A DNA stretch of 64,000 bases. Source: a virus. Positions within the stretch are counted from its first letter, which is position 1; each line of letters starts with the position of its first letter. The translations under genes were made by a program, and so were the position numbers. This document shows, piece by piece, positions 337 to 57,700 of this stretch. The notes beneath the pieces were generated by a model. It saw only the letters and a program-made list of their open reading frames with translations, made no database searches and had not been told where the DNA came from. Where the stretch lies: IMG/VR virus record IMGVR_UViG_3300031949_000010. The stretch is one strand, 5' to 3'.

Positions 337-338
337 GC

Positions 339-689: not shown

Positions 690-705
690 ACTGGAAAGGA
701 ACCCG

Positions 706-1545: not shown

Positions 1546-1581
1546 GCTCTTGGAGACGCCCGCTCGGCGGGTGGGACGACC

Positions 1582-2547: not shown

Positions 2548-2637
2548 TCGGCCCGGCGAAGCCAGAGCCGAACCAGCCCCCGACTGACGACGACTTCCTC
2601 GATGACGAGGTGGGCCAGACGATGGACGGAGAATAGG

Positions 2638-4365: not shown

Positions 4366-4369
4366 GGTC

Positions 4370-4858: not shown

Positions 4859-4863
4859 GATCC

Positions 4864-6537: not shown

Positions 6538-7283
6538 GCAGGCAGACGCGGCGAGGCGCCGAAAATGTCCGGCAGGACCTGGCGACGAAGGAGCTTCGCC
6601 GTATCGCGCTACTCTGCCCGAATGGGATGGCCCGCAAGATCCTCTCTCAGGTGAAGGCCGAGCACCGGGCCAGGATTGAGGATGACCGGCGGCTCGTGAA
6701 GGACGTCCGGGGCAGGGGCGGCGTGTGCTTCCCGGGGGGCATGACAAGGGAGGAATGGGGAGACCGGCTACCGCGATCGCTGCACGGCCGTAAACGCCAC
6801 TGCGCCCCGAGCGACGAACTTGCCCAGGAGCTCTACGATCGGGGCCAACTTCCAGACCCGTCGACGGACGCGGTTCTTGACAAACTCTCGGGCGCGTACA
6901 CGCGCTCCCGCTCGGCCGTGCCGGCGCCGGACGAGAAGGAACTCCTCAAGGAGGCCAAGCGCCTAATCGGGGACGAGGTCCGGCTGGCCGTCCGGGAACT
7001 GGTAAAGAGCGCCGAAAGCCACTGCGAAGCTGCGTGTCCGCAGCCGCTTGAGGTATCCCTTTCGGGCCTGACAAGGGGATACTCGCTGGGCGCCGCGCAC
7101 GACCGATCTGCCACCATCGACGAGCGCCGGAAGGGGCTCCTACGGCTCGCGCGGCGCAAGGGATGCGCTCCCGTTCTACAAAGCCTCAAGATCGCTCGTA
7201 TCAAGGTCCGCGGCCGCGCGAGGGCGTCCGTTTCGGCGGACATCGCGTGGCTCCGGGTGCGAGGGCCCTGTTCGGCCAGATGA
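6534..7283 (+). CDS. Basic protein with C-terminal DUF5771-like domain
   Basis: C-terminal RGYS...ERRKGL.R.ARRKG...V...L......ADIAWLR parallels the C-half of ORF 54397..54810. Confidence 0.6.
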   Translation: MSRQTRRGAENVRQDLATKELRRIALLCPNGMARKILSQVKAEHRARIEDDRRLVKDVRGRGGVCFPGGMTREEWGDRLPRSLHGRKRHCAPSDELAQELYDRGQLPDPSTDAVLDKLSGAYTRSRSAVPAPDEKELLKEAKRLIGDEVRLAVRELVKSAESHCEAACPQPLEVSLSGLTRGYSLGAAHDRSATIDERRKGLLRLARRKGCAPVLQSLKIARIKVRGRARASVSADIAWLRVRGPCSAR

Positions 7284-7465
7284 GTTCATTTCCTCTATAA
7301 GTGAAGTTTGTATAAGGCCTCCTTGAGAGCGCGAGGGGGCGGCTCGCGGATTGCCCGTTGCTGGCTGGCGCATAGGAGGCTTCCTTTAAGAGCATCTGTA
7401 AAAGGCCGACCGGCCAAAACTAGGCATGGCGCAGATCCGCTATCTAGCGACTATAGACTTCTAAA

Positions 7466-9748
7466 ATGGCGCTTACCGTGACCACCGACCTGACTCGCGT
7501 GACAGACGCCGAATCCGTCACCGGCTGGGTGAGCTACGGATCGGGCGGCGCTGGCGCGATGGCGCTCGAGCCCGACTTCTTCGTCCAAGGCTCGAACTGC
7601 ATCAGCCGGGGCGTTTCCGGAACAGTCAACAAGGGGATGCTGTTCGACCTTGGGGCTGGTGGAACGCTCAACTTCTTGACGACTCACGCGGGCAAGCTGA
7701 TCTTCATCTGGATGCGCACCTCGACCCCCGGCCTCATCGACACCAGGCCGAACGGGGGCATCAGGATCGTGATCGGGTCAGGTGCGACCGTTCCCGGTGA
7801 CGCGGCCGGGGTATGGTCCGCTTTCTACGTGGACGGATCCGACACCATCGACGGAACCGATGGTTGGAAGTGCTACATCATCGACATCTCGCTTCCAGCT
7901 TCCGCTACCTTCGGCGGCGGCGTCGATCTTACGGCCGTCCGGTACATCGGGGGCGTGCAGAGGTCCATCGGCACCCTCAAGGGTCAGAACTTCGGCGTGG
8001 ATGCCATCGGCTACGGCTTTGGAGAGTTGCGCTGCTACGGCACGGTGACGAACGAAGGCCGCGGGTTCAACGAGATGGCGGACGCGGACTTCGGCACGCT
8101 CGCGAACCGCTACGGGGTCATCATCCGGAAGGAGGGCATCCTCTTCGTCCAGGGGCGCCTGATTCTCGGGGACTCTTCCGGGACGAACGGCCTCACGTTC
8201 TCGAGCCGGAACGAGCAGATCGTCTTCAATCACCAGACCTACTACGACGGAACCCGCGCGCGCCCATCCATTCCAGACCGGCGTCCCGATGGCACTCCAT
8301 ACCTCGGGATCTACCGCATGGGCAACTCGACCAACACCACCGACGTTGAGATCGGCGCCAAGGTGGGCACCGGGGACACCGCGACAGGTCGCTCAGGCGG
8401 CAGCTTCACGGGCTCTCGCATCCGAACGGACTTCGTCGGGCAAAGCGGGACGGTTAAGAGCGGCTCGTACCTCAAGGTCTACGGAGCCCAGTTCCGCCGC
8501 TTCTGGGGAGGGATCGACCTCACAGGAAACGTGGCCGGCGACGAGTGGCATGGAGGCTCGATCTCGCTCTGCGGCACAACCCAGGCGGGTAAGGTCAAGT
8601 TCCGGAACGTCTCCTGGATCGACAACTATGGCGGCGCCTACCGCTTCCTGGAGGACTTCATCAACGATGCGGCCTCGAACGAGGCGCTCGCGACCGCAGA
8701 TCCGCGCATCGACTGGGGGAATGCGGTGGGCGGGACTCAGCTCACGGTCCCAGCCAACGCCGAGTACGCACGACTCGATCCAGCGGCGGCGGTGCGGAAC
8801 GTGGTCAAGATCAACGCCGACATCGTCGGAAGCGATGACCACTACGTGGACGCGATTGTGCGCTTTCCGACAGGGTCGAATCAGGGGATCATCGGGATCC
8901 TCATTCGCGGAGACGCGACGCTCGCAACGGAGAACTACTGGTACCTGAAGCTCGATCGACCGAACAGCCAGATCAGCCTTGTCCGAAGCGATGGCGGAAT
9001 CGATACCACGGTCGTCGGCCCAACGGCGTTCACGCTCAACGCCGACACGGACTACCAGATTCACATCCGCGGCTCAGGAACCGCCATCGAGGCGTTCGTG
9101 AACGGGACGAAGCTCTCGACCACGTCCTCGACCTACCAGACGAACCGGCGCGTCGGCATCGTGGGCGTCACGAACACCTCGCAGTCTGCCGGCGCGGAAC
9201 CCCGCATGTCTCGGTTCGGATGCGGGCCCGTAACTGACGTCTACGCCGCCACACGCCTCCCTGTAACCGCCGACGACGACGTGGTCAACTGCGCATGGAT
9301 CAACAACGGGCGCGCCACTGCGGTCACGGAATCTGCGGGGACCTACGCCTACACGGGGCATAGCTTCTCGGGCAACGCCGTAGGAGTCCGGAACGACTCG
9401 AACGGTTTCGTCACGATCAACGTCTCGGGGGGAGAGTCGCCGGGTACCAACACGGAGAACGTTGGGTCCGCGACAACCACCATAAACGCGACCTACGACT
9501 ACACTCTCACGAGCATCGTCTCCGGCTCCGAGGTCCGTATCTTCAACGACGCTACGGGGGCCGAGTTAGCTGGTACGGAGTCCAGCGGCACCTCCCTTAC
9601 CTGGCAGCACGACGGGACGGCGCTGAACATCTACGTCATCCTCCAGAAGACGGACTACGAGTGGCTGAGGATCAATGATACTGTGGGGGCGGCCGCCAAG
9701 TCCCAGAAGGTCTTCCAGCGGGAGGACCGGAACTATGCGAACCCATGA
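7466..9748 (+). CDS. Large beta-rich virion/spike-like protein (760 aa) with an internal ConA/laminin-G-like domain
   Basis: Gly/Thr/Asn/Asp-rich; N-terminal TTDL..V..AE..TGW...EPDFFVQG motif recalled from phage structural proteins. Confidence 0.75.
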   Translation: MALTVTTDLTRVTDAESVTGWVSYGSGGAGAMALEPDFFVQGSNCISRGVSGTVNKGMLFDLGAGGTLNFLTTHAGKLIFIWMRTSTPGLIDTRPNGGIRIVIGSGATVPGDAAGVWSAFYVDGSDTIDGTDGWKCYIIDISLPASATFGGGVDLTAVRYIGGVQRSIGTLKGQNFGVDAIGYGFGELRCYGTVTNEGRGFNEMADADFGTLANRYGVIIRKEGILFVQGRLILGDSSGTNGLTFSSRNEQIVFNHQTYYDGTRARPSIPDRRPDGTPYLGIYRMGNSTNTTDVEIGAKVGTGDTATGRSGGSFTGSRIRTDFVGQSGTVKSGSYLKVYGAQFRRFWGGIDLTGNVAGDEWHGGSISLCGTTQAGKVKFRNVSWIDNYGGAYRFLEDFINDAASNEALATADPRIDWGNAVGGTQLTVPANAEYARLDPAAAVRNVVKINADIVGSDDHYVDAIVRFPTGSNQGIIGILIRGDATLATENYWYLKLDRPNSQISLVRSDGGIDTTVVGPTAFTLNADTDYQIHIRGSGTAIEAFVNGTKLSTTSSTYQTNRRVGIVGVTNTSQSAGAEPRMSRFGCGPVTDVYAATRLPVTADDDVVNCAWINNGRATAVTESAGTYAYTGHSFSGNAVGVRNDSNGFVTINVSGGESPGTNTENVGSATTTINATYDYTLTSIVSGSEVRIFNDATGAELAGTESSGTSLTWQHDGTALNIYVILQKTDYEWLRINDTVGAAAKSQKVFQREDRNYANP

Positions 9749-22968: not shown

Positions 22969-23294
22969 CCCAGTGAGAATCGGCTTGTTTTGCAGTTGTG
23001 GCGCAGGGCTCGAAGGAGAACTGCCGGATTCTGCGGTCGATAGGTTGATCGCAATCTGGCGAGAGTGCCACCAGGGCCCTGGACACGGATCCTGCACGAA
23101 AAGGCAGGCTACCGAGGCAATGAAGAAAGCCGAGCTTTTGGACCTCCAGAGCAGACTGAGAATGAATCCTTGAACCACATTCTCCCACTACAGATGGGGT
23201 GGACACCGCCGGCGGGGACCAAAGCCCCGCCGGCGTGGCCTGCGCCATCAGGAGGCACTGGAATGGATCTCGACGACCCAAGGCAAAGGCAACC

Positions 23295-25091
23295 GTGAGT
23301 AAGATCTCCATTGGCAAGGCACCGGACGGGAGTACGGTCTACGCGGACCTGGACGTCTTGAGCCGCACGCGGGCGCTCATCCAGGCGAGCTCTGGCGGGG
23401 GGAAATCCTTCCTGATCCGGCGCCTGGCCGAGCAGATCTTCGGAAAGATACCGGAGTTCATCGTCGACGAAGAGGGCGAGTTCCCCTCGCTCCGCTGCGA
23501 GAAGTTCCCGTTCGTCCTCGTGGGAAAGGGAGGGGACACGCCGGCGGATCCCCGGTCGGCTCAGATCCTAGCGCACCGCCTCCTCGAGCACCGGGCCTCC
23601 GCGATCTTCGACCTCTCCGAGCTCAAACCTCAGGTTCGGCACCACTGGGTGCGGCTGTTCTTCGAAGCCCTCGTCGAGTCGCCGCGGGCTCTCTGGACGC
23701 CCGTCATCGTCTTCCTGGACGAGGCGCACCACTACGCGCCCGAGAAGGGCGACAGCGAAGCGCGCGGTGCCGTGGTCGACGCCGCCACCCGAGGCCGGAA
23801 GCGCGGAATCTGCCTCATCCCCGCGACGCAGCGCCTCGCGAAGCTCTCGAAGGACGTGAGCGGAGAGCTCCTCAACCGCTTGATTGGACCGACCTTCGAG
23901 GACCTGGACATCGAACGCGCGGCCGACCTCCTCTCGATCGTGAAGGCCGAGAAGGCCGACTTCGCCAAGTCGATGCGCGTCCTCGCGCCTGGCAACTTCC
24001 AACTCCTGGGACGGGCCTTTGGAACGGAGCGCATCCAGGTGAAAGTCGGGCCCGTCGAGACGACCCCCCCCGAGCTCGGGCGATCGAAGCGTATGCTCGC
24101 CCCGCCCCCGCCGCCCGAGAAGATCAAGGCCTTCCTCCCGAAGCTTCAGGATCTACCGAAGGAGGCGGAGGAGAAGGCGAAGACGGAGGCCGAACTACGT
24201 GCCGAGATCCGATCACTCAAGACCCAACTCGCCGTCAAGCCGACGGGCTCGGTCATCGCCAAGCCTACAGAGAAGGCGGCGACCCTCAGGATTGAGGTTC
24301 CAGTCGTCAAGCCAGCCGAGCTCCTGCGGGTGGAGAAGGCCATGGGCCGCGCTGTTGAGGCGGCGAACCGAGCTCAGGAGGCCGCGGGCCACCTCAGGGG
24401 CTTCTCGGATCTGATCCAAGAGCGGATCGCGTCGGTCGATAAGAAGCAACGACAGACTGACGCGTCGAGGATCCGCGCAGCCGTCACCGAAGTCCGGGTA
24501 CCCCGGGTACCCCTTAAAACGCCTCTGGAACGGCCCCAGACCGTCAAGAAACCGGCGAATATTATTCACGCCGAAAAAGCGCCCCAGGATGGCCAGGGAA
24601 CGACTCCTGCGCAGGGACGCATCCTGAACGCTTTGTCGGACTTCTACTCGATCGGCCGGTCCGAGGTGCCGAGGACATGGGTCGCCGCCCGCGCGGGCGC
24701 AAGCCATCGCTCCGGTGGCTTCAAGAACAACCTGGGGAGGCTCCGCGCCTTGGGCTTAATCGACTACGGCGGCGCCGGCACCGTCCACCTGACGGAGGCC
24801 GGCCTAGATGCGGCGCCCCCGCCGGACCGCCCCAGCACGACCGAGGCCATGCTGCAGAGTTGCGTCAAGGTGCTCTCTCCGGCGCAGGAACGGATCCTGC
24901 GAGCGGTCTTCGACGCCTTTCCTGGCGTGCTCGTCCGGGAGGATCTCGCGGCCGCCGTCGGGGCCTCGTCGACGTCCGGGGGCTTCAAGAACAACCTGGG
25001 CGCGCTACGGTCGGCTGGCATGATCGAGTACCAGCAGGGCGGCGTGAAATGCGCCAACTGGATCTTCGTGGAAGAGAGGGCCACGGCATGA
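23295..25091 (+). CDS. HerA/DUF87-like P-loop ATPase with two C-terminal winged-helix repeats (598 aa)
   Basis: Walker A ASSGGGKS, Walker B IVFLDEAH, GRKRG..LI.ATQR; SGGFKNNLG.LR..G.I.Y occurs twice. Confidence 0.88.
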   Translation: MSKISIGKAPDGSTVYADLDVLSRTRALIQASSGGGKSFLIRRLAEQIFGKIPEFIVDEEGEFPSLRCEKFPFVLVGKGGDTPADPRSAQILAHRLLEHRASAIFDLSELKPQVRHHWVRLFFEALVESPRALWTPVIVFLDEAHHYAPEKGDSEARGAVVDAATRGRKRGICLIPATQRLAKLSKDVSGELLNRLIGPTFEDLDIERAADLLSIVKAEKADFAKSMRVLAPGNFQLLGRAFGTERIQVKVGPVETTPPELGRSKRMLAPPPPPEKIKAFLPKLQDLPKEAEEKAKTEAELRAEIRSLKTQLAVKPTGSVIAKPTEKAATLRIEVPVVKPAELLRVEKAMGRAVEAANRAQEAAGHLRGFSDLIQERIASVDKKQRQTDASRIRAAVTEVRVPRVPLKTPLERPQTVKKPANIIHAEKAPQDGQGTTPAQGRILNALSDFYSIGRSEVPRTWVAARAGASHRSGGFKNNLGRLRALGLIDYGGAGTVHLTEAGLDAAPPPDRPSTTEAMLQSCVKVLSPAQERILRAVFDAFPGVLVREDLAAAVGASSTSGGFKNNLGALRSAGMIEYQQGGVKCANWIFVEERATA

Positions 25092-28866: not shown

Positions 28867-29901
28867 GTGAAGTCGGTGCCTATCGTCCTGCTCGTGGATG
28901 CCAGCTACCCGACCCGGAAGGGCCACGGCTGGTACTACAACCTCGGGCTGGCAAAGGCACAGAATTGGTGGAGATCCCAGGGGGCCGAGGTCCGGCTGAT
29001 CGCGCCGCCCGTCACCCTGTTCGACGCGGCCCACGTCAAGGTGGCGTTCGTCTCCGCGATCTTCTCCTGGGACGTCCTGAAGGCCCTCGAGATCGCGGAG
29101 GGGCTCCGGGGCGTGGGGATCTCCGTCGAGGTCGGCGGCCCCGGCTTCTTCGCCCTGCGGGACCTGGCGCGGTCTAAGGGCTTCGAGCCCCAGGTGACGG
29201 TGGACGCCCGCTTCGACCGCCAGCCGGGCACCTACGATGCGGTCTTCTGGTCCCGGGGCTGCCCGGCCTACAACTGCACCTTGGGCTACCCGAAGGACGG
29301 GACGCGGCCGGTCTGCCTCGTCCCGGAGATGGAGGGCTCGAGGTCAACGCTCTACGAGGACGTGACCCCCGCGCCGATGATCCTCGACAACAACCTCTCG
29401 GCGCTGCCCCGCGCCCACCAGGAGCGCATCGTCGAGCGGACGCTGGCGGCGGGCTTCAAGACGGTGGACTGCAACAGCGGCTTCGAGCCCCACTCCTTCA
29501 AGCCCGAGACGGCCTCGCTCTGGAAGCGGCTTCCGCTGGTCGCGTGGCGGTACGCCTACGACGAGGCCGGGGAGCGCAAGGCCGTCCTGAAGGTGTTGGG
29601 CATCCTGGACGGGCTGGGGATCCCGCGCCGGAAGTCACATATCTACTGCCTAGCCGGGAACGAGCCGGTGGAGGCTTGCGAGGAGCGCGTCCGCGAGATC
29701 CGCTCCTGGAAGGCCGTCCCTGTCGTCCAGCGCCGTCGCCCGCTCGACTGGACGGGCGGGGAGCTTCCGACGCTGCACGACTGGACCGAGCGCAAGCTGA
29801 TCGACTTCCAGCGGTGGGGCAACCGCCTCTCCCATTCGATGCCTTTCGCCAAGTACGACCCGCGCCTGAACCACTCGGGCGTGAAGATGAAGGGAGCGTA
29901 G
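28867..29901 (+). CDS. Phage-type radical-SAM-like protein (344 aa)
   Basis: NLGLAK...GAEV, F.W, VGGPG, SRGCPAYNC...C.VP..EG, LDNNL, VDCNSG.E, RYAYD. Confidence 0.7.
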   Translation: MKSVPIVLLVDASYPTRKGHGWYYNLGLAKAQNWWRSQGAEVRLIAPPVTLFDAAHVKVAFVSAIFSWDVLKALEIAEGLRGVGISVEVGGPGFFALRDLARSKGFEPQVTVDARFDRQPGTYDAVFWSRGCPAYNCTLGYPKDGTRPVCLVPEMEGSRSTLYEDVTPAPMILDNNLSALPRAHQERIVERTLAAGFKTVDCNSGFEPHSFKPETASLWKRLPLVAWRYAYDEAGERKAVLKVLGILDGLGIPRRKSHIYCLAGNEPVEACEERVREIRSWKAVPVVQRRRPLDWTGGELPTLHDWTERKLIDFQRWGNRLSHSMPFAKYDPRLNHSGVKMKGA

Positions 29902-46529: not shown

Positions 46530-47473
46530 GCGCGGCCACCAGAGGACAACCTCCACGATGAGATCGTCGCACGGATCCCCTCGGTAAGATCGACCTCTGG
46601 CTCCCATCCCAGGATCGATCGAGCCCTCATCCCGTCAACTGAACGGCGCGGCTGGCCATCGGGCTTCGAGGGGTCCCACTCGATCAAACCCTGGTATCCG
46701 ACCTCCATGGAGATGATCTGCGCGAGATCAGCGATTGAAATCTCGGGGGAGCCCGGCAGGTTGACCGGGACATCGTCGTCCAGCATGCCAGCCGCGGCTA
46801 CGACCGCCCTGGCGCAGTCGTCGACATGAAGGAACGATCGCGTCGCGAGACCAGTACCCCAGCAGCAGACGGACGGGCTTCCGGCCACCCGTGCCTCCTC
46901 AAACTTTCTGACGAGCGCGGGAAGCACATGGGATGTTGAGGGAGAGAAGTTGTCCCCGGGCCCGTAGAGGTTGCAGGGCATCAGGTAGCCGAAGCGAAGG
47001 TCCGATTGCGCCCGGTGCGCTTGGCAGAGGACGAGCAGGGCCTTCTTTGCGATACCGTAGGGCGCGTTGGTCGGCTCTGGGTAGCCGTCCCACAGGGAGG
47101 ACTCGGAGAACGGGGCGGGGCAATCCTTGGGATAGCTGCAGATCGTACCCACCATGAGAAGCCTCGTCCGGGACCGCGCGCAGCCCCCCACGACGGAGAG
47201 GCCCATGGCCATGTTGTCCTCGAAGAACGAGGCGGGGGCTCGCATGTTGGCGCCGATGCCCCCGCAAGCAGCGGCCAAGTGGACGACGAGATCGGGCGAG
47301 AAGGACCGCAAGGCAGACTCGAAAGCCTGAGGGACGCGCAGGTCGCACCCAATAGACCGACTTACGCTCTGGATCTGAGCGCCCCCTGCGGCGAGCATCA
47401 AGCAGGCCCGGCGTCCCAGGAAGCCCGTTCCGCCGGTGACCAGGATTCGGCTGGCCGGCATGAGCGGTGCCAT
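46526..47473 (-). CDS. fcl: GDP-L-fucose synthase
   Basis: VTGGTGFLG, HLAA.CGGIGAN...PA.F..DN, GTICSYPK, GYPEPTNAPYGIAKK, NLYGPGDNF...SHV.PAL, WGTG...RSFLHVDD, WD.SKPDGQPRR. Confidence 0.93.
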   Translation of the reverse strand: MAPLMPASRILVTGGTGFLGRRACLMLAAGGAQIQSVSRSIGCDLRVPQAFESALRSFSPDLVVHLAAACGGIGANMRAPASFFEDNMAMGLSVVGGCARSRTRLLMVGTICSYPKDCPAPFSESSLWDGYPEPTNAPYGIAKKALLVLCQAHRAQSDLRFGYLMPCNLYGPGDNFSPSTSHVLPALVRKFEEARVAGSPSVCCWGTGLATRSFLHVDDCARAVVAAAGMLDDDVPVNLPGSPEISIADLAQIISMEVGYQGLIEWDPSKPDGQPRRSVDGMRARSILGWEPEVDLTEGIRATISSWRLSSGGRA

Positions 47474-47477
47474 GGTT

Positions 47478-47975
47478 TTAGTACGCCCCCATCCAGATTG
47501 CCGCCAACTCGTCGCGGGTGCCCTGGGACTCCGAGAACGCCGTCCCGAAGGCGTCGATCTTTCCCGCCATGAGGGCGTGGGCGTATCCGAACGTCCTGGA
47601 GGTGTGCCTCAGGAACGCGTCCCTCCAGGCTTCCGTCGGGAACCGGACGGAGTCCGCCGAGTACAGCCGGGTCTGGGCCTCGACGCTGCTCACGGCCATG
47701 TCGATCGCGGCCGCCGCGTCGCTCGGATTCCCCGCCCTGAGGGACTGGAGGAAGAAGGCGACCGCAGCGACGTGGTCCGCCATGAGGGCCGCTGCAAGGG
47801 GGTGCCCGACGATCTCACCCCAACGGACGACCAACTCCCAGAGAGCTTCCCGGGACACGGCCACCCGGGCGGCGTCTGCGGTCTGGAAGCCGGTGACGAG
47901 CTCCGAAACGAGCCTCGAGTGATCCACCCACCAGAGGGCGGCGTCCTTTGCGCGCTCTGTCGCCGGCGCCGTCAC
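47478..47975 (-). CDS. All-helical protein (165 aa) with spaced His residues
   Basis: LWW.DH...LMADH...FLRH pattern. Confidence 0.65.
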   Translation of the reverse strand: MTAPATERAKDAALWWVDHSRLVSELVTGFQTADAARVAVSREALWELVVRWGEIVGHPLAAALMADHVAAVAFFLQSLRAGNPSDAAAAIDMAVSSVEAQTRLYSADSVRFPTEAWRDAFLRHTSRTFGYAHALMAGKIDAFGTAFSESQGTRDELAAIWMGAY

Positions 47976-48499
47976 GGGGAGCCCTCCTCAAGTACCGCGC
48001 TCCCCCCCAGAGAGGCCCTTCGGGAGACGTCCGGCGGAAGGTGCGAGGACGGCCAGGTCTCGATCAGGTCCTCGGGGGCGCCGATTCCGCCATGGGGCGC
48101 GAATCCCTGCTTGGCGAGCGCATGAGCGTGTTGGGAGGCATGCGCCCAGTCCCTGAAGGCGAGCCCGCGTCCACGCCACCCGAAAACGACGAAGAACGGC
48201 TGGCCTGCGTCTGGGCGCTCGCCCAGGAGCGCCCGTGCCCGCACGCTGCGGGCGTGAGACCAGAGGGCCCGCCCTTTTGCCGTGGGCATCGGCCTCCCAG
48301 AACGCGTCTGCCGGACGAGGCCCCTCGATTTCAACTCGGAAAGATCGGCCGTCCAGCGCTCCCCCTCCTCGTCGCCTTCGCCATCCAGGAGCATGCCGAG
48401 AAATGACGCCATGATGTCCAAGTCGGCACGCTCGGCGGCCGCAGGGCGCTCCGCTACCTGCTCCACGGCGCGATCGAGTAGAACGGCGAAACGATCCAT
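47972..48499 (-). CDS. Hypothetical protein
   Basis: GTGA coupling to the downstream gene; start uncertain. Confidence 0.55.
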   Translation of the reverse strand: MDRFAVLLDRAVEQVAERPAAAERADLDIMASFLGMLLDGEGDEEGERWTADLSELKSRGLVRQTRSGRPMPTAKGRALWSHARSVRARALLGERPDAGQPFFVVFGWRGRGLAFRDWAHASQHAHALAKQGFAPHGGIGAPEDLIETWPSSHLPPDVSRRASLGGSAVLEEGSP

Positions 48500-48975
48500 G
48501 GGTAGTACGGCACCTGGCCCGTGGGCCCGACGGGGGACCCCGGGTAGTACGGCTGAACCCGCCCTGGCGCGGTCGCTTGGGCAGGTCCCATCTTCTCGAG
48601 TCCGGCTCGGAGCGCCCGCACGCGCGCGGCCAGCGTCGCATGCGCCGCCACAGCTCGCCGGCGCTCGTCCAAGCCCTCCTCAAGCCGCGTGGTGGCCTGG
48701 TCGTGCCGCTGGCCGACCTGGCCAAGCTTACGAAGCCATGCGGGCGTCATCAGCCGGTCGAGCGTCCCGTTGGAGAGGGCACGCCTCGCCTCGAGAGCCA
48801 TGGCGCCCATCCAGTCCGACGTGATCCTGTGGGCCTCCTCTCGCGCGCCCACCGCGGACTGGATCGAGGCGAGGATGCCCTCGGCTTTCTCCAGGTCATG
48901 GAGCGCGCGCGCAAGCTTCTCCTGCGCCTCCGCCCGGGCCCGGGCGTCCACCGGGGCGACCTGTCCCATCCTCAT
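48454..48975 (-). CDS. Coiled-coil protein with Pro/Tyr/Trp C-tail (family B)
   Basis: SD gaggagg; MRMGQVAP...QPYYPGSPVGPTGQVPYYPWIVSPFYSIAPWSR. Confidence 0.7.
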   Translation of the reverse strand: MRMGQVAPVDARARAEAQEKLARALHDLEKAEGILASIQSAVGAREEAHRITSDWMGAMALEARRALSNGTLDRLMTPAWLRKLGQVGQRHDQATTRLEEGLDERRRAVAAHATLAARVRALRAGLEKMGPAQATAPGRVQPYYPGSPVGPTGQVPYYPWIVSPFYSIAPWSR

Positions 48976-49017
48976 CGAGATTCCTCCTCGGCCGTTCCGG
49001 CCGCGTCAGGCAGCCCC

Positions 49018-49601
49018 TCAGGGCGGGCATTCCTTGGCCTTGCAGAGCTCCGCCGCCGCCTCTGCCTCCTTGAGCGTGGCGAAAGGCGTGGCCCGTGAGC
49101 GCCGTCGGGCCCTGCCGCAACGTCCCCCCGTCGTCCGGAGGAAACCCCTGAGGTCATTCGTAGTTGGGTCGAACAGCGCGACCACGAAGCCCTTCCCCGC
49201 GAGCCCCTCATCCACAACCGCGCAGGGCGGCATGGGCGCCCCAGACACTCCAGCCGCTGGACGCCGGCAGGACGCCGGCGTGGTCACAATTCCCTCCGGA
49301 GCGTGATCGAGAGCCTCCTGGCGTAATCGGGCCTTCCGTCGGCCTTCCAGACGCGGGCCTGCTCCTGAGCCTCCTCGACAAGCATCCGGAATCCCTCTCG
49401 GGCCGCCTCGATCCAGTGGGGATCCCGGCTGAGGTCCGCCTTCATTCCCTCGAAAATCGCTTCGGCGACACGGCTCACCCACGGAAGCACGGGGTCGTCC
49501 GTGCGCCGGATCATGGCGCGCCCCGCCAGGACGCGCTGGACCTCGCCTAGAACGGCCTCCTCGACCAAGTCAAGCGCCTGGGCGAGCGAGAACGCGGCCA
49601 T
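49018..49601 (-). CDS. Two small hypothetical proteins (49018-49287, 49284-49601)
   Basis: SD aaggag before 49601; GTGA overlap. Confidence 0.55.
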
Positions 49602-49603
49602 AG

Positions 49604-49909
49604 CTACTCCTTGCCCATGATACGGCCGATGATCGAGCAGATGTCGAGGAGCGCCGCGAACGCGCTCACAATGCCCACCGTCCAGCCGGCCGTCGACCAG
49701 AAGCCGGAGGCGATGATGCCGAGGTATACCCCGATTGCGCCAGTCGAGCCGTGGACGAGAAGACGCACGGCGTCGCCCACCCATCCCGGAAGCCCCATCA
49801 TCCCGTCCCAGGTCTGACCGAGGCCGAGCGGTGGCCGCGCCGCTGGACGCGCTCCAGCGAAGCTGGGCCGTGCGAAGCGGGCTGCGGAGTCGAGGATGGT
49901 CGGGGTCAT
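49604..49909 (-). CDS. Small multi-TM membrane protein with GLGQ leader
   Basis: ARFARPSFAG...PLGLGQTW; hydrophobic C-half. Confidence 0.7.
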   Translation of the reverse strand: MTPTILDSAARFARPSFAGARPAARPPLGLGQTWDGMMGLPGWVGDAVRLLVHGSTGAIGVYLGIIASGFWSTAGWTVGIVSAFAALLDICSIIGRIMGKE

Positions 49910-50844
49910 CGAGGGCCCCCGGAAGAGTAATAGTAGGGCATTTGGGGCTTCGCCGAGGCGGTGGGGGAGGTCGCTGTCGGCACCGCAACTATGACCTGAG
50001 GGATGATGGCCGTTTCAGGCGACCACCATTTTCTAATGTCGATCCTCAACCCCCGCATCCGGACGCACCAGACGAACCAGGCGTGCATGTCCGCGCTGGA
50101 TGCAAACTTCCCCTGCATGGTCTCCTTCAGTTCTCGCGCCGCGTCCTTCATCTCATTCTCGGCGCTCTTGACAGCCCCAGCCGGGGCCCTGCGAGCGGTC
50201 TGCGCGTTGTACTCGGAGACGGCCGTTTCAAGGTTCTTCGCCAGGATACAGAGTTCATCCCAGATGACGGGCACTTTCGCAGGCACGGCGGGCGCGCGGG
50301 GAACTCCGGCCGACGGGGCGGGGGTGGGCGTGGGAGCCGGCGCGGATACTGGCTGCTGCGGCTGAAGGGCGCGGAGAATCGCCTCCTTCTCCCAGAGGAG
50401 GGCCTGCATCTTCGCGCGTAGGGCCAGGTCAGTCTCGATCCTTGCCGCCCAGAGTTTGGCCTGATTTTCTGGGAAGTCGCGCTCGAGTTGCTTTATTCTC
50501 CACTCCTCGTAGCCCAGCCAGCCGCTGGCGCGAGCCGCCCGGAGCCGTTCTGCGTCGCGTTCGTAATCTTCCGCATTCCGGCGGATCGCCTCGTAGAGGT
50601 TGGTCATCTCCAAGTCGATCTGGTCGACGGTTTTCGTTGGCACGGCGGGCCGCGCGCTCGGGGTGGAGGACGTCACCGCTGCCGGAGGGAGTTGGGCGAA
50701 CCCGGGGCGGAGCCGATCCCACAGGCGGTTCAGGTCCTTGGAATAGTCCCGGTACTGGTCGCGCCAGTAGTCGATCATCGGCTGGGTCGCCGAGGGCGGT
50801 TGCCCGAGCGCCCTTCTCCGCGCATGAAAGGCCATCGGAAGCAT
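49906..50844 (-). CDS. Coiled-coil/Pro-rich protein (312 aa) with ALGQ leader and PYYY tail
   Basis: TGATG coupling; MLPMAFHARRRALGQPP... Confidence 0.7.
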   Translation of the reverse strand: MLPMAFHARRRALGQPPSATQPMIDYWRDQYRDYSKDLNRLWDRLRPGFAQLPPAAVTSSTPSARPAVPTKTVDQIDLEMTNLYEAIRRNAEDYERDAERLRAARASGWLGYEEWRIKQLERDFPENQAKLWAARIETDLALRAKMQALLWEKEAILRALQPQQPVSAPAPTPTPAPSAGVPRAPAVPAKVPVIWDELCILAKNLETAVSEYNAQTARRAPAGAVKSAENEMKDAARELKETMQGKFASSADMHAWFVWCVRMRGLRIDIRKWWSPETAIIPQVIVAVPTATSPTASAKPQMPYYYSSGGPR

Positions 50845-51308
50845 CAGAGCACCGAGAGAAGAAGTGAGAGAATCGTGGGCAACCCGACGCCGGCCACCGC
50901 AGTCAGCACGGGTGGCGCCGCCGGGACCCCGAGGAGTGGCTCGGCGCACTTCGCGAAGGCCTCGATCGCCTTGATCTGGGCTAGGTCAAGTGACATCGGC
51001 CCCTGGCCACCCTGGGAGATCCGGGACAGCGTGTCGATCGCCCGGTCGAGATCTGGAACCTGCTCGACCAGGTCCTTCATGCAGACATCGGCCCGCGCGG
51101 CCGCCTTCCGCTCCGAAGTCGAAGCGCCCCCCCGGGCAACGGCCTCGAGGGCCCGCGCGACGGCGTCCCTGGAGCTTCTGGCAAGAGCGAGCAGCCTTTC
51201 GGCCGAGGGCCGGTCCAACTCCGCCCGTGGCGGGAGCTCCGGCTGCTCCCGGACGTCCGGGGGCGCGGGAAACTCCGGCAAGGGCCCGAGATCACGATGA
51301 CCGGGCAT
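50844..51308 (-). CDS. Tail-anchored protein, paralog family A (shortest member)
   Basis: KAAARADVC...AIEAFAKC...VAGVGLPTILSLLLSVL. Confidence 0.75.
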   Translation of the reverse strand: MPGHRDLGPLPEFPAPPDVREQPELPPRAELDRPSAERLLALARSSRDAVARALEAVARGGASTSERKAAARADVCMKDLVEQVPDLDRAIDTLSRISQGGQGPMSLDLAQIKAIEAFAKCAEPLLGVPAAPPVLTAVAGVGLPTILSLLLSVL

Positions 51309-51528
51309 TCGCCTCCCTTGCGATCATGCTTCTCCTCAGCTTGAGCCCCACGAGCCGCGCGGCGAGGCTCTCGGCCCGCGCCCTTGCGCCAGAGCCCCCC
51401 GTGGAGAGCGCCAGGCGCTCGGCCGTCTCCACGGCCTCCTCCGCCGTCGGGATCGCAATCTCGTCCATATACCTCAGCGCCCAGGATGGGCTGGCCGGCG
51501 GCGGGCCCCCCATGAGAGCCTGTCCCAT
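51292..51528 (-). CDS. Small protein (78 aa), MGQALMG leader
   Basis: TGATG coupling. Confidence 0.55.
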   Translation of the reverse strand: MGQALMGGPPPASPSWALRYMDEIAIPTAEEAVETAERLALSTGGSGARARAESLAARLVGLKLRRSMIAREANARSS

Positions 51529-52499
51529 CAGAGAAAGATACCCGGAAATGCCTGAACGCGCAACCCCGCCCCGTAGGGTGGAAACCACGGGAAGGAAGGG
51601 GCTGAGACAGGAACGGTGACCTGCGAGCGCGGTGCCGGGATGGGAGGGCGCGGCGCGGCGGGCCCCATAACAAGCCGGTCTGACGGCGGGACGATCCGGA
51701 TGCTGGGGGGAGAGTAGGTCGCCCCCTTTGGGAGCGCGCAGAGCTCGTATCCGACCCGCTTCACCCAGGCGATTTCGGGCGCTGTCAGGAACTCGGTTAC
51801 TTGCTCGTTGAAATTGGACGCCTCACGCCGCGCTCGCTCGTAGGCGTCCTGGCCAGCCTGCCCCGTGGTCGTTCTGGCCCGGTTCTGCTCGCGGCAGATG
51901 AGTTCCCACTGCTTGGCGAGTCCCCAGAGCTCGCGCTCGCGGGTTCCCCGCGGCCACGGGTTCTGGCTCTGGCCGAGCGCGGCACCGGATCTGATGCCCG
52001 CCTCTGCGAGCGCCAGCATCCGCCCGATCAGGGCCAGGGGGACGTCGACCCTCGATCCCGGCGGCGTTGCAGCCGCCGTAAGGGCCTCGCGCGCTGCCGA
52101 CGAGGCTGCGGCATGGCGCACCGCCGAGAGACCCCGGGGAGCGGCCACGGCGCCCTCGTAGCGCTCCATCGCGCGGGCTGGCGGGGGAACGAGGGAGACG
52201 AGATCTGTGCCGGAGGCTTTGGCCAGCCAGCGGAGCGTCTGGCCTGAGAGCGATGCCGTGCCGGCCGGCGGGGGTGCCAACTCGTCCGCGCTCGTCCGGT
52301 CAACTCCTGGACAGTCCTCGGCGCGGAATGCGGCGAGCGCGGCACCGCGGCCGGCGGCATTCAGGCGGGACTCGAGGACGACGGCGAAGACATGCCGCCA
52401 GTTGTCTACTGCGGGCTTATTGACCCTCGACCGGGCCTGCGAGTAGTCGCGGGCGACCTGGCAGAGGGCGGCGACTACGTCCTTCAGGGTATCGGCCAC
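51528..52499 (-). CDS. Ala/Pro-rich protein (323 aa) with internal ALGQ and aromatic Pro tail
   Basis: SD gaggagg; ...SFPWFPPYGAGLRVQAFPGIFL. Confidence 0.65.
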   Translation of the reverse strand: MADTLKDVVAALCQVARDYSQARSRVNKPAVDNWRHVFAVVLESRLNAAGRGAALAAFRAEDCPGVDRTSADELAPPPAGTASLSGQTLRWLAKASGTDLVSLVPPPARAMERYEGAVAAPRGLSAVRHAAASSAAREALTAAATPPGSRVDVPLALIGRMLALAEAGIRSGAALGQSQNPWPRGTRERELWGLAKQWELICREQNRARTTTGQAGQDAYERARREASNFNEQVTEFLTAPEIAWVKRVGYELCALPKGATYSPPSIRIVPPSDRLVMGPAAPRPPIPAPRSQVTVPVSAPSFPWFPPYGAGLRVQAFPGIFL

Positions 52500-52508
52500 G
52501 GGACCTCC

Positions 52509-53318
52509 TCAGGCGGCAACCAGGACGGACCCCACGATGGGTAGCCCGGTTCCGATTAGTGCTTCGAGCCAGGGCGTACCTGCAGGCTCGGCTCCGGCCG
52601 TTCCGAGCGCCTCCTCTACGCAGCGGGCGAAGGCCTCGAGCGCCTCCGCCTGAGCAGGCGACACGCGTGCGGGACGCCCTTCTATCTTCGCGGCGCAGAG
52701 TTCGTCGACCAGCCGACGGAGCTCCCCAACTTGCGTTCGGAGTTCGATCAGGCATCTCTCTCCGGCAGCCGCCGCGCCCTTCTCGGCCGCCGTCGCGCTG
52801 CACCTCCGAGCGCGGATCCGGGCACGCTCTATCTGGATCCAAGCGGTTTCCGAGAGCTCGAGGATGCGGGTCACGATGCCGATCTCGATCATTCCCACTC
52901 CCGGGATCGGGGGCACCTTGGCGGGCGGCGGCGGACGGATGAAAGGTGGAAGAATGGCGGTGGGCGGGATCACGGGCCGCGGCCGAGGTGGAATGGGCGG
53001 TCCGATGATCGGAGGAGACGTGGGCGGCGGCGGCATGATTTCAACCGTTGGCGGAGGCGCGAGCGACGGTGCCGGCGGGACGACGGGCGATGGGGGAGCT
53101 CCGCCCGGGACGCAAATGGGGCACGGAGGCTCATTCTGGGGCTTCGCCGTGCTGACCCAGGTGAGGATGCACTTCCCGGTGCCAGTGTCATAGCACTTGA
53201 CGAGACCGCCTTCCTGGCAGCACTGGATCTGCCCCAGGCCCGCCTGGCCCATCAGCCAGTGCATCGTCTTGTGGCTCAGGCTGACGTATTCCTTTCCCAT
53301 GCTCGCCATCTTCGTCAC
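52509..53318 (-). CDS. Family A: Cys-rich head, Pro stalk, helical domain, TM anchor
   Basis: GLGQIQCC...; GAAAAGERC...ALEAFARC...IGTGLPIVGSVLVAA. Confidence 0.8.
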   Translation of the reverse strand: MTKMASMGKEYVSLSHKTMHWLMGQAGLGQIQCCQEGGLVKCYDTGTGKCILTWVSTAKPQNEPPCPICVPGGAPPSPVVPPAPSLAPPPTVEIMPPPPTSPPIIGPPIPPRPRPVIPPTAILPPFIRPPPPAKVPPIPGVGMIEIGIVTRILELSETAWIQIERARIRARRCSATAAEKGAAAAGERCLIELRTQVGELRRLVDELCAAKIEGRPARVSPAQAEALEAFARCVEEALGTAGAEPAGTPWLEALIGTGLPIVGSVLVAA

Positions 53319-54094
53319 GCCGCAATCAGGATGGAGGCGGCCGCCGGCAACGCGACGCCCGCAACGGCCTTGAGCCAGTTGGGCGAGGAGTCGGGCGCGA
53401 TCGCCGCAATCTCGCCCAGACAGGCAACCAGAGTCTCGAGGGCCCCGACCTGCCGCGCGTTCAAGCGCGCCGCCCTACCCGCCCTCTTGGCGGCACAGAG
53501 CTCGCCGACTGCCGCTGAAAGCGTGCCGGCGGCGACCGTGAAGCCGGCTAGGCACTGCTTCGCCTGCGTTGCGGCCATCTTGTCGGATTCACTCGCCCCG
53601 CAGCGCTGCCCGCGCAGAATGGCCGCCTCGGCGCTCTCCCATGCCGCCTCTGCCTTGGAAAGGATGCCTTCGACTGCTGCCGTGTCGACTGGTCCCGTTG
53701 GCCCGGTCGGAGGAGGCGGCCGCGATGGCGTGAAGGGAAATTGCCCGCCTGGAAAGCCCTGCCCAGGCGGTGGTGCCCATGGGAAAACGCCCGGAAAGAA
53801 CGTGGGCGGCGGGACCGGGGGACCCAGGGGTGCCCCTCCTCCCCAACCAGGGTCAGGGCGGGGATCTCCGGCCCCCGGGGGGGCGGGAATGCCTCCGCCG
53901 CCGGTCGTCAGGTCGATGGTGCCCGTTCCGCCCCCTCCCGCGCCCCCGCCGGCGTCAGCGCCTCCGGGAGCAGGCGCGCCTCCCGGGACGCACGTGAAGC
54001 TCTCGGTGAGGTTGTCAGGGCTTATCGTGACCTGAGGAACCATACCCGGAGGGCACTGCTGGCCGAGGGCCATCGAAAGACGGACAGGCATCAT
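53315..54094 (-). CDS. Family A: two-Cys head, Gly/Pro stalk, helical domain, TM anchor
   Basis: MALGQQCPPG...; KMAATQAKQC...ALETLVAC...VAGVALPAAASILIAA. Confidence 0.8.
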   Translation of the reverse strand: MMPVRLSMALGQQCPPGMVPQVTISPDNLTESFTCVPGGAPAPGGADAGGGAGGGGTGTIDLTTGGGGIPAPPGAGDPRPDPGWGGGAPLGPPVPPPTFFPGVFPWAPPPGQGFPGGQFPFTPSRPPPPTGPTGPVDTAAVEGILSKAEAAWESAEAAILRGQRCGASESDKMAATQAKQCLAGFTVAAGTLSAAVGELCAAKRAGRAARLNARQVGALETLVACLGEIAAIAPDSSPNWLKAVAGVALPAAASILIAA

Positions 54095-54103
54095 GGGAGT
54101 CTC

Positions 54104-54394
54104 CTAGCTTCCGCTCGCGGCGACCCAGACGAGCATTCCGCCGCCGACGGTGATCCTAAAGAGCCTGAAAACGGTGGACCAGCCGCCCTGGTCCTGGGAC
54201 GCGAAGAGCGACACGAGGCCCTCGCCGACCAGGACGACGCCCGAGACCGCCAGGGCGACGCCAAGGGCACTCGTCAGGGGCACCTTCGGTACGGTGTGGC
54301 CCTCGAAGATGATGGCCGGCACGCTCGATCGCGCGCGGGAGATCCCCGTGGTTCGGCCTCCGAAGGAGGGGCTCGCGAAGGCGCGCTGCCGCAT
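54104..54394 (-). CDS. Small two-TM membrane protein (96 aa)
   Basis: MRQRAFASPSFGG...; ALGVALAVSGVVLVGEGLV; FRITVGGGMLVWVAA. Confidence 0.65.
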   Translation of the reverse strand: MRQRAFASPSFGGRTTGISRARSSVPAIIFEGHTVPKVPLTSALGVALAVSGVVLVGEGLVSLFASQDQGGWSTVFRLFRITVGGGMLVWVAASGS

Positions 54395-54396
54395 TC

Positions 54397-54810
54397 TCAC
54401 CGTCCCTTCGTCTTGAGCTCGCAGAAGGCCTGATCCCGAAGCCAGTTCATGTCGGCCCCCGCAGCCCTTTTCGTGCCTGGGTCGGCGGTCTTGTTTCGGA
54501 GTAGGTTGAGCCTGCGAATCGCCTCTCCGCACCCATCCGCGTCCACGACCTTCCGCAGGATCCCGTGCCTCGTGCGCGGGGCCATCTTCTTCTTCCAGCC
54601 GCGGAGCCCGCCTGGCCGGATCTCAGGGAGCGTCCTCCGTGAGGGTGGCGTCTTCCCGGGCGCGCCGGTGTCCGGAACGCAGCCGGCGGAGACCTGGACG
54701 CCCTGCTTCGTCGTGTAGGCGCGCCGCAGGATGAACTGGGGTGGGCAGGTCCTCGCGGCCCCCAGCCGGAGGTCTCCCAGCGTGCTCGGGAGCGCCCTAT
54801 TCTTGCCCAC
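54397..54810 (-). CDS. Basic DUF5771-like protein (NCLDV-type), 137 aa
   Basis: CPPQFILRRAYTTKQG..V...CVPDTGAPGK...RHGILRKVV...G....IRRLNLL......ADMNWLR. Confidence 0.75.
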   Translation of the reverse strand: MGKNRALPSTLGDLRLGAARTCPPQFILRRAYTTKQGVQVSAGCVPDTGAPGKTPPSRRTLPEIRPGGLRGWKKKMAPRTRHGILRKVVDADGCGEAIRRLNLLRNKTADPGTKRAAGADMNWLRDQAFCELKTKGR

Positions 54811-54871
54811 GTCTCCCTCTACTGTACCCTGGAAGTCTAGCCGACGTGGGGTGCGGCGTCAACGCCTACGA

Positions 54872-55207
54872 CTACCCCTGGTAGCCCAAGGAGCCGATCG
54901 TCAGCGTGTAACCGTCGAAGAGGACGTACCCCGTGGCTTCCCCACGGACGGGACGCGCTTCCATGGTTTCGACGTTGATGGAGACCGCCGCGCCATGGTA
55001 GAACTCGATGGCGCTCGCGATGTCGCGCATGAAGGGAAGTACGGCGTCCCTCGGGATGGGCGGCTCGTCAGCCGCCTTCGCGGCCAGGATGATCTTCATC
55101 TCGAACGGCGACTTCCAATGCTTCCCGTGCGCCCTCTCGATCAGAGTGAAGAGGACGCGATTCCTGACGACTTCCACTGGGTCGGGCATGTCGAAGACGT
55201 CGCCCAC
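54872..55207 (-). CDS. Phage hypothetical protein (HWKSP...AIEFYHG...GY)
   Basis: SD aggaggg before GTG 55207. Confidence 0.65.
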   Translation of the reverse strand: MGDVFDMPDPVEVVRNRVLFTLIERAHGKHWKSPFEMKIILAAKAADEPPIPRDAVLPFMRDIASAIEFYHGAAVSINVETMEARPVRGEATGYVLFDGYTLTIGSLGYQG

Positions 55208-55656: not shown

Positions 55657-56064
55657 CTAGAGTTCGTATTTCCGTAGGAAGTCTAGGTAATCGGCCTGAG
55701 CCGGTCCACCTTCCATTTCCGAACGAACGAGGTAGGCCTCGTAGTCCTCCCTGCTGAGGTGGCTTGGTCGACGAAGCCCCGCATGGAAAATCAACTCGTC
55801 CTGGACATGTGGACCGATGAGCCCCGCCTTTCTTGCATCATCGTACCGGAGCTCGTATCGTCCGTCGTAGGTCTGCCCGTCCTCCCACGAGATCCGGAAG
55901 TCGACTTTGTCGATGCTTCCATCCTTAGGAGCCGTTCTTGCCCACCGTTTCAGGTGGGCGTCAGCGGCCTCCAAGGAATCGACCGTGTGCTGGCCGAGGT
56001 CTTTCGTCGGACCCTCGGCTCGGCGAACCCAGACGTTCCGCACCCTGATCTTGTCCATAGTCAA
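55657..56064 (-). CDS. Hypothetical protein, possibly LPD25-like
   Basis: APKDGSIDKVDFRISWEDGQTYDGRYEL resembles the recalled GYDK.DF...DG..Y.GR.DL motif. Confidence 0.6.
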   Translation of the reverse strand: MTMDKIRVRNVWVRRAEGPTKDLGQHTVDSLEAADAHLKRWARTAPKDGSIDKVDFRISWEDGQTYDGRYELRYDDARKAGLIGPHVQDELIFHAGLRRPSHLSREDYEAYLVRSEMEGGPAQADYLDFLRKYEL

Positions 56065-57700
56065 TCCCAGTAGGGCGTGCCGACCACGCTCGGCGTCCTC
56101 CCCTCCGCTCGGTCGACGGCCTCCTGCCGGTAGTCGTGGCTTGCGGGAATCTGGAGTCCCTGCTGATGGACGCTCTCAAGCCCCATCAACTCCGCCAGTT
56201 CCTTGAGCTCGGCTGCACGATTGGCCTCTCTTGCGGTCGGCACGTCGATGTCGATCCAACCCCACGCGGTGCCGCGGCCACCGCGCACGCTCCAGGATTT
56301 TCCGCTGCGGCGCTTCAGGGCCGCGCGGACCCTCGCTATCGTCTCGTCCCGTTCCATTTCCTTCCTCCAAGCGTGGCTCCGCGTTTTGCGCAGACTAGTC
56401 TCGCCTGCGCGACTGCTGTTTTCTTTGGGACCATCTCAATGAAGGTCACGACACAGCCGGACTCAAGTGTGACGCGAGTGGCTTTTCGGATTTTCCGCCC
56501 CGTAGGCGTTACGAGCCTGATGGTTTCCACTATGGCTTTGTGTGCCATCGTTCACCAATCTCCGGTTTCGCGAATGTAGCCTCTCTAGCCGCTGTAGTAA
56601 GCCTGGCTTGCGGCCGCAGCCAACTCGGAAGCTGTTATCTTATGATATTTGGGTGAGAGTTTGAGCTCGACGCCCCTCGCGATGCGGACGATTGCGCGCA
56701 CCTCGATGTCGCTCGTGGGGCCTCCGACCCAGGCACGGGCCACTCTCCAGACAGCCTTTTCTAGGGCCTTCTCACTTACCATCGTTCACCTTCCCGAAAT
56801 TACCATCCCGAGCGCGTCTACCTACGCAATTCCTCGCTCGAATGCCTCCTGAGAACTGGGCAGGATGGGAAGCTTCCTGAGCAGGTTGTAGATCCAGGAC
56901 TTCGCCCCCTCAACCCCACGCGCCATTACCGGGATGGGCTCTGGGGTTACGAGCTCGAATCCGCCGGCGCCGGGGTCCGCCTCGGTGACACTGACCACAC
57001 CCCAGTCCTCGGGCGTGCTCGGCCGGTAGTAAAGATAGGTGCGTTGATAGGAACCCGCCGCCTCTCTGGCCAGACGGGCGGCGAGACCCCACAAGACCCG
57101 GTCCATGAACTCGGTCTCGGACTCGTACTTCTTCTTCGGGGCGGTCTTCGCCATTCGCTCTCCGGCTAGTCGTGGGACGTCGCCACGATGTCCTTGTCGT
57201 CGATGGCTTCTTGCTCGATTTTGTAGCCGTCTCCTACGCGAAGTTTGCGGGGCTCGTCCGGGTCATAGTAGACATAAAAGACGACTTTGAAGTCCGTCTC
57301 CTCGGCTTTCTTCCTCGCAAGCTTGACCGCATCGCGATAGCTCAACGGTCGACCTCCCTACCGCTCCCGAGAATTGTAACGTCTTGGGCGTCGGTAAGTC
57401 ACGCGGATCGTGCTACGGTAAGCACCCATGGATGAAATGGGCGACACCGAGCATTCAATGCAGAAGCCTTCCTGCCGGCAGAGGGCGCAGTTGGCTTGCT
57501 GATATGACGGGCCATGCGCGTTCCCGCAGGGCGAGATCTTGACGTGGCAGTCCCGGCAGGCGAACACGCTTCACCGCACGAGAACGATCGTCCTTGAGGG
57601 GTGGTCGATGAAGCATTCGAACGTCGCCTGGATTTCCGAAACGGCCTCCTCAGGTGCAACGCAGATTTCGATGCCCGCAAAAAAGACGGCGTACATGCCC
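56061..57700 (-). other. Small early-type ORFs (56061-56357, 56336-56548, 56585-56782, 56822-57154 and shorter ones)
   Basis: Co-oriented, downstream of the promoter at 57723-57758. Confidence 0.55.

Follow-up and report, generated by a model that had tools for sequence, protein, structure and literature searches.

The protein encoded by the open reading frame at positions 54397–54810 (minus strand) of the window, i.e., of the whole 64,000-nucleotide stretch of DNA analysed here, is a divergent member of the DUF5771 family that falls in a distinct clade borne by prokaryotic viruses and mobile elements, not by giant viruses. What is new about the family is its prokaryotic and archaeal range, an extra pair of cysteines, an N-terminal leader and the existence of membrane-anchored variants.

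The frame, whose product is referred to below as P0001, runs from a GTG start codon at position 54810 to a TGA stop codon at position 54397 and is present at exactly those coordinates. Its 137-residue translation is identical at every position to the protein string given in the first-pass annotation of this DNA. The GC3 value of P0001 is 0.86, which is among the top values in the window (64% GC overall) and fits a real, well-expressed coding gene. A Shine-Dalgarno-like (SD) sequence, GAGGGAG, is located at positions 54813–54819 of the minus strand, with its GAGG core 5 nt before the start codon, and the start position is kept in aligned relatives. The 61-nt gap that follows the upstream gene houses both this sequence and a putative σ70-like site, TTGACG-17 nt-TAGACT (54834–54862, minus strand), which is a match to the consensus alone (one site found versus 0.2 expected). 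P0001 is the first gene downstream of this promoter-like site and heads a tightly coupled run of membrane-protein genes. The predicted protein is very basic, with a pI of 11.2 and 29 lysines and arginines versus 10 aspartates and glutamates, and a net charge of about +18. DNA of the window has been found in soil metagenomes; there is no RNA dataset among those listed for the region.

On sequence criteria, the setting of P0001 is prokaryotic. SD cores precede 40 of the 63 predicted starts (63%) versus 16% of internal start-like codons (p 8e-17), and the genes are closely spaced, neighbours overlapping or lying only a few bases apart. Several genes are related to those of bacterial phages (phrog_14517, E 2e-45). 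The sugar-pathway genes are nearest to bacterial ones; the RfbH-like gene has its nearest relatives in Binatia, Gemmatimonas and Anaerolineae, and in mixed bacterial phyla overall. The SD sites, the σ70-like site and the phage-shared genes thus indicate that P0001 does not reside in a Nucleocytoviricota-type genome.

Searched alone, P0001 matches PF19075 (DUF5771), the sole Pfam family listed for it, over residues 76–127 with a score of 13.8 bits (E 0.071), which is below the gathering cut-off of 26.2 bits. This shortfall speaks for a chance or compositional likeness between small basic proteins, a reading that the relatives of P0001 contradict. Alignment A1 combines P0001 with nine close metagenomic relatives (53–78% identity), and eight of these ten sequences match PF19075, the best with an E-value of 2.8e-12. 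The hmmscan comparison proposed in the first-pass annotation stays below threshold for P0001 alone and succeeds for most of its closest relatives. When the A1 profile was scored against 1.84 billion representative proteins, it retrieved 955 representatives at E ≤ 1e-3, 311 of them with E ≤ 1e-10, and the matches cover positions ~17–125, i.e., both halves of the protein. PF19075 is matched by 68 of the 90 aligned relatives in a larger alignment (A2), where no other Pfam family recurs. The consensus of the 90-sequence alignment, which contains giant-virus-type relatives, reads CPxGxIxRKxYTxKxGxxVxxxCVxDxGxPGK...GY...R..AL.K...G...R.LNL..N...D..WL, and every element of the motif string given in the first-pass annotation is present in it.

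The nearest ESM Atlas clusters of the P0001 family are DUF5771 clusters, whose commonest phylum is Nucleocytoviricota. The sole IMG/VR match of the family is located on a GVMAG contig, and two relatives are carried by contigs of 463 kb and 238 kb with giant-virus-like gene spacing. In tblastn searches, P0001 had no match among 50,697 phage records and none among 72,556 plasmids. No paper was found under the name DUF5771 in the searchable literature. Since P0001 alone scores below the cut-off while its relatives match PF19075, we treat it as a divergent branch of the superfamily and not as a Pfam-threshold member. That it is a full-length homologue of the DUF5771 superfamily, comprising both halves, we regard as practically certain. 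The earlier description of P0001 as such a homologue is borne out, as the profile matches both halves and the named members of the family belong to giant viruses. Nothing in the analysis supports the accompanying suggestion of an NCLDV core component, DUF5771 having no assigned function, or that of an ancestor of such a component.

The anatomy of P0001 was delineated on an AlphaFold2 model built on the A2 alignment (mean pLDDT 82.5); the coordinates below refer to the minus strand. The protein begins with a leader, LPxTLGDLRLGA (residues 1–20; 54751–54810), which is modelled as disordered. It is followed by a predicted two-cysteine β-hairpin (residues 21–56; 54643–54750) that contains C22 and C44, strands at residues 26–29 and 43–46, and the loop D47-x-G49-x-P-G52-K53. 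A basic linker (residues 57–76; 54583–54642; net charge +6; LP..PGGL.GW), modelled with lower confidence, leads to a three-helix domain (residues 77–128; 54427–54582) with predicted helices at residues 78–92, 94–107 and 111–126 and a pLDDT of about 95. The C-terminal tail, [FW]-C-x-L-K-[TS]-K (residues 129–137; 54400–54426), carries C130. The Pfam DUF5771 model describes the three-helix half alone, and the hairpin half is present in no Pfam model; the hairpin and three-helix modules together make up the full DUF5771 layout, which is newly defined here.

Comparison of the P0001 model with BFVD, in which predicted structures stand on both sides, revealed that the 17 best matches with an organism name all belong to giant viruses (E 4.6e-8 to 0.09). 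The best match is a protein of Marseillevirus LCMAC202 (E 4.6e-8), and the others include proteins of Klosneuvirus, Catovirus, Harvfovirus, Iridovirus LCIVAC01, Edafosvirus, Tetraselmis virus 1, Hyperionvirus, Yasminevirus, Hokovirus, Bodo saltans virus and chlorovirus (z858R). The sole Atlas cluster with a TM score above 0.5 is a DUF5771 cluster (TM 0.52, rmsd 2.8 over 84 residues). The first-pass annotation had named the lack of any significant match to DUF5771 or NCLDV proteins as evidence against its proposal; what was found instead is that relatives match PF19075 and that predicted folds match giant-virus proteins. Among solved structures, Foldseek retrieved nothing from the PDB at E < 1, and a wide VIA-align search returned generic helical repeats with Z ≤ 6.9, which are uninformative. 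There being no likeness to a solved structure, no DNA-binding fold is recognised in P0001.

Conservation was followed in 164 family sequences. Within the helical domain, R81 (helix 1) is present in all 164, D120 in 158, N106 (at the end of helix 2) in 137 and a tryptophan or tyrosine at position 123 in 134; P0001 has all of these invariants, with D120 and W123 in helix 3. In the hairpin module, G52 is kept in 154 sequences of the 164, G49 in 151, D47 in 142, C44 in 139, K53 in 136 and C22 in 127. R81, N106, D120 and W123 probably keep the three helices in place or provide an interface for a partner. With such position-specific invariants, an agreeing predicted fold and overwhelming transitive and profile evidence, a chance likeness of P0001 to DUF5771 is extremely improbable; it is effectively ruled out by the PF19075 matches of the relatives, the 955-protein profile result and the BFVD fold matches.

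A maximum-likelihood tree of 142 domain sequences, which is midpoint-rooted and sampled with a bias toward P0001, contains a clade of 45 rows (support 100/94). This clade includes 31 of the 32 sequences with four cysteines as well as a subclade of membrane-anchored or cysteine-less members. Its sister is a clade of 26 rows, within which the nearest relatives of the GVMAG protein are found. The phylogeny that the first-pass annotation called for thus does yield a prokaryotic clade nested beside a GVMAG-type clade, and with a midpoint root this arrangement fits transfer in either direction and common descent alike.

The cysteines that distinguish the prokaryotic clade are C94 and C130. Both are present in 41 family sequences, only one of them in four and neither in 119; sequences without them mostly have a tyrosine at position 94. 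This co-variation comes largely from one clade and therefore reflects few independent events. Since short natural variants that lack the hairpin, and with it the C22/C44 pair, retain C94 and C130, the two pairs appear to be independent. As judged from the sequences, the four cysteines are most simply explained as two disulfides rather than as one four-cysteine metal site; counting against a C94–C130 disulfide is the fact that disulfides are unusual in bacterial cytoplasmic proteins. It is very unlikely that P0001 is a redox-active or exported small cysteine protein whose pairs form a thiol-disulfide relay or a metal site. Four conserved cysteines in the clade, the position of C130 seven residues from the C-terminus and a thioredoxin gene on a related 92-kb contig agree with such an activity, but P0001 lacks a CxxC motif, a signal peptide and a thioredoxin-like fold, and most family members possess only the first cysteine pair, some having no pair at all. 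The 92-kb contig, which carries one member of the clade, also codes for a Sigma70_r4 protein, Mom, a product with a faint zf-HC2 match and another with a weak SSB match, in keeping with a prokaryotic setting of the clade.

Two structural disulfides remain our reading of the cysteines, and the second feature that sets the clade apart is the leader. In the four-cysteine group, it ends in L-G, and G17 is present in at least 90% of 22 members; in more distant members of the clade, it takes the form EL[IV]ELG[RK]. Proteins of the giant-virus type start at the first cysteine, without a leader, and often end in tails rich in K, R or S, or contain the domain at least twice. We infer that the leader is possibly a processing or targeting signal.

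Comparison with the DUF5771 proteins of Nucleocytoviricota, which are uncharacterised small basic proteins (Marseillevirus LCMAC202, Klosneuvirus, Catovirus, Harvfovirus, Tetraselmis virus 1 and chlorovirus ATCV-1 z858R), summarises these similarities and differences. P0001 shares with them the hairpin with its D-x-G-x-PGK loop followed by the three-helix domain, the invariants R81, N106, D120 and W/Y123, and matching predicted folds. In contrast to them, it is encoded on a prokaryote-type, SD-using contig with 64% GC, has C94 in place of the usual tyrosine and C130 within a conserved C-terminal CxLK[TS]K, and combines an N-terminal “ELG” leader with the lack of a K/R/S-rich tail.

In five members (P0028, P0038, P0039, P0043 and P0050), a C-terminal hydrophobic anchor comes immediately after the DUF5771-like domain; two of the five proteins are large (650 and 990 amino acids). 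P0043 (L031, 8001–10973) is encoded on a 77-kb contig together with ParA, SbcC and a weak Prim-Pol match. Homologues without cysteines are also present in archaea, where 4 genomes out of 197 from a single class carry them (MAGs labelled Thermoplasmata or Methanobacteriota); the nearest relatives of these homologues lie within the 45-row clade. The archaeal homologues (L004, 2524–2883; L005, 1210–1569; L026–L030) are near-identical between two MAGs. The one in L005 is located where a chromosomal contig of 44% GC ends in a stretch of 35% GC and adjoins ordinary archaeal housekeeping genes (PFK, NMD3 and a pseudouridine synthase), which suggests an integrated element.

In the window, P0001 heads a minus-strand run of genes extending from 54.8 to 47.5 kb, many products of which have hydrophobic anchors. 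P0001 itself has no hydrophobic segment. The next gene (54104–54394, minus strand), whose ATG lies 2 nt past the P0001 stop codon, codes for a small membrane protein of 96 amino acids, and the adjacency of the two genes is conserved in relatives (58–59% identity). A complex prediction for P0001 residues 18–137 with the 96-residue protein gave a score of 0.00, the fold of the partner being uncertain, and so weighs on neither side of the question of binding.

On a related 58.6-kb contig, the run that begins with the P0001 homologue (55% identity) is contiguous and colinear with counterparts of the genes found at 0.1–7.3 kb of the window; the small membrane protein there is 58% identical, and a GT9/GT2 glycosyltransferase is 49% identical. 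The two blocks of the window, 100–7300 and 47400–54900, are about 40 kb apart and on opposite strands, while their counterparts are contiguous in L001 (1600–17600 of the 58.6-kb contig). Because of this contiguity and colinearity, we consider the two blocks to be one conserved module that is split by ~40 kb in the window, and the fibre, replication and sugar genes look as if they had been inserted into the module or inverted around it.

The plus-strand block contains a further, probably DUF5771-related sequence. The C-terminus (residues 192–247; 7107–7274, plus strand) of the product of ORF 6534–7283 is matched in hmmsearch with an E-value of 7.5e-5, as the sole other matching ORF among about 1000, and in hhalign with an E-value of 2e-4 (probability 46%). 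It retains the R, G-C, D..W and terminal Cys features and is joined to an unrelated N-terminal region; it is probably another copy of the helical domain alone that has diverged.

A short motif, [LM]-G-Q, is overrepresented in the proteins of the module, with 11 occurrences observed versus 1.2 expected and none of 1000 shuffles reaching 11. It is found within the first 70 residues of 6 of 20 module proteins versus 2 of 59 others. Most occurrences are near N-termini, where the motif recurs in the module of a distant relative, L010; P0001 has the variants LGD and LGA. The motif may be a shared processing or targeting signal.

The window was also searched for genes that would reveal the type of virus. 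Pfam and PHROG comparisons detected no terminase, portal, capsid or tail family among about 50 ORFs of the 64-kb window, outside of which lies one third of the 96-kb source contig, and ORFs of related loci likewise yielded no terminase, portal or capsid. None of these families, tail families included, is among the precomputed Pfam assignments for 40 kb (12.9–52.6 kb) of the related contig. Genes for glycosyltransferases and methyltransferases abound in the window and in that contig alike. The first-pass annotation had placed P0001 in a bacterial SD-type operon with membrane virion genes. The bacterial character of the operon stands (SD sequence, σ70-like site, coupled genes and phage-shared genes); the virion genes are putative, no capsid gene having been recognised.

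Several individual ORFs were considered in the course of this search. A 630-residue ATPase (23199–25091) was rejected as a packaging gene, being HerA-like only. A 344-residue ORF (28867–29901, plus strand), which has no Pfam match and whose GC3 of 0.94 is the top value among the large ORFs of the window, was rejected as a capsid gene: it falls in phrog_9298, which bears the label “radical SAM domain protein”, and its relative sits in the early region of an archaeal tailed phage. ORF 47478–47975 (minus strand) codes for a well-conserved protein of 165 amino acids (GC3 0.89) that has 10 relatives in metagenomes, His, Asp and Trp residues at invariant positions and no Pfam or PHROG match; it was dropped as a small capsid protein, since its family looks helical and His-rich. 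The 760-residue product of 7466–9748 (plus strand) resembles the Synechococcus phage Syn5 structural protein gp54 in its C-terminal part and a protein of virus Rctr197k over a longer stretch, and is probably a fibre or spike common to phages. ORF 56061–56357 (minus strand) gives a sub-threshold match to PF19072 (DUF5768; E 0.08) and a weak LPD29 match.

As to function, we tentatively propose that P0001 may be a basic, virion-internal structural protein acting at the interface between membrane and genome. The protein would be abundant and strongly cationic and would be made together with the products of a putative virion-module operon; we infer that the genes around P0001 have a virion identity. 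It would be located on the inner face of a virion membrane, where the co-transcribed small membrane protein or, in some relatives, a C-terminal anchor of its own would retain it, and would neutralise or organise the packaged DNA. A probable C94–C130 disulfide would stabilise the helical domain and staple the C-terminal tail to helix 2, and the leader, which ends in L-G, may be cleaved off during maturation. We favour tethering to a membrane because five relatives have the domain followed by a C-terminal anchor and because coupling to the small membrane protein is conserved within a module rich in membrane proteins.

A DNA-facing role inside the virion is favoured by the extreme positive charge of P0001, by the polybasic tails and tandem domain copies of giant-virus members and by a parallel with ascovirus P64. 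P64 is an abundant virion protein that binds and condenses genomic DNA experimentally; it contains 2-cysteine adaptor motifs (PF08793) and Arg/Ser repeats and is the main DNA-condensing protein of the virion (PMC6163548). The P0001 family resembles P64 by analogy of working only, as very basic viral proteins with two-cysteine modules and polybasic stretches: P64 lacks the DUF5771 helical domain, P0001 lacks R/S repeats, and no sequence relation was detected. PF08793 (2C_adapt) gave no match for P0001 at E ≤ 10 and none among 90 relatives at E ≤ 0.01, so that, as far as the sequences go, P0001 is not in the 2-cysteine adaptor family and resembles it only in pattern. Small basic core proteins of large DNA viruses can also be protamine-like, as exemplified by baculovirus P6.9 (PMC6163548). 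P0001 belongs to the same class of size and charge and would share with them a DNA-neutralising role, but protamine-like proteins are unfolded and of low complexity, whereas P0001 consists of two conserved folded modules with position-specific invariants.

Some observations stand against a DNA role. P0001 has no recognised DNA-binding fold, the long R/S or K tails of giant-virus members are absent from it, and R81, N106, D120 and W123 look structural or protein-binding, not DNA-contacting. These residues (with W or Y at position 123), together with the glycine-rich loop, are typical of a fold core or of a partner interface, and would also be expected if P0001 were a protein–protein adaptor or assembly factor that docks a conserved viral partner at the membrane, its charge being incidental and DNA not being organised by it. 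The fusion of family members to large unrelated N-terminal regions and to membrane anchors (P0043, P0050 and P0032) agrees with an adaptor, as do the weak helical-repeat matches, which at Z ≤ 6.9 are not significant and correspond to protein-binding modules (VHS, TOG and InvE/CopN gatekeepers). We nevertheless consider this possibility doubtful, given a net charge of about +18 in only 137 residues, the polybasic tails that recur in relatives and the fact that no partner was identified.

The charge could alternatively mean that P0001 is a non-structural nucleic-acid-binding protein, i.e., a regulator or an RNA- or DNA-binding factor of the infected cell, whose place at the head of the operon is incidental. 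The protein is indeed small and basic and is encoded by the first gene past the promoter-like site, its cysteine-less homologues occur in archaeal chromosomes away from recognisable virion genes, and automatic annotation has wrongly named relatives ribosomal proteins L34e, L20 and L35, in reflection of their RNA-binding-like composition. However, neither a helix-turn-helix nor another regulator fold is present, the membrane-anchored relatives speak against a soluble regulator, and linkage to the membrane-protein module is conserved; this explanation is therefore unlikely. A virion-internal protein at the membrane–genome interface remains the role that we prefer for P0001.

DUF5771 is a family widespread in giant viruses; a distinct, well-supported branch of it now extends to virus-like elements of bacteria and to the genomes of archaea, which widens its host range across domains. 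The small, soluble protein of the bacterial branch, its conserved membrane-protein neighbour, the anchored variants and the co-varying cysteine pair all lend themselves to experiment. It is conceivable, if quite improbable, that DUF5771 is an ancient bridge between membrane and genome in the virion interior, inherited from a common ancestor of giant viruses and of an undescribed lineage of bacterial viruses. If this were true, that lineage would consist of viruses of roughly 60–100 kb, rich in membrane proteins and glycosylation genes; the contigs of 96, 92, 100 and 59 kb would be its members, and it would be a prokaryotic relative of the giant-virus stem and not the recipient of a stray gene. 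Should the carrier contigs prove to be new large membrane-containing bacterial viruses, P0001 would be among the very few small proteins that link such viruses to giant viruses.
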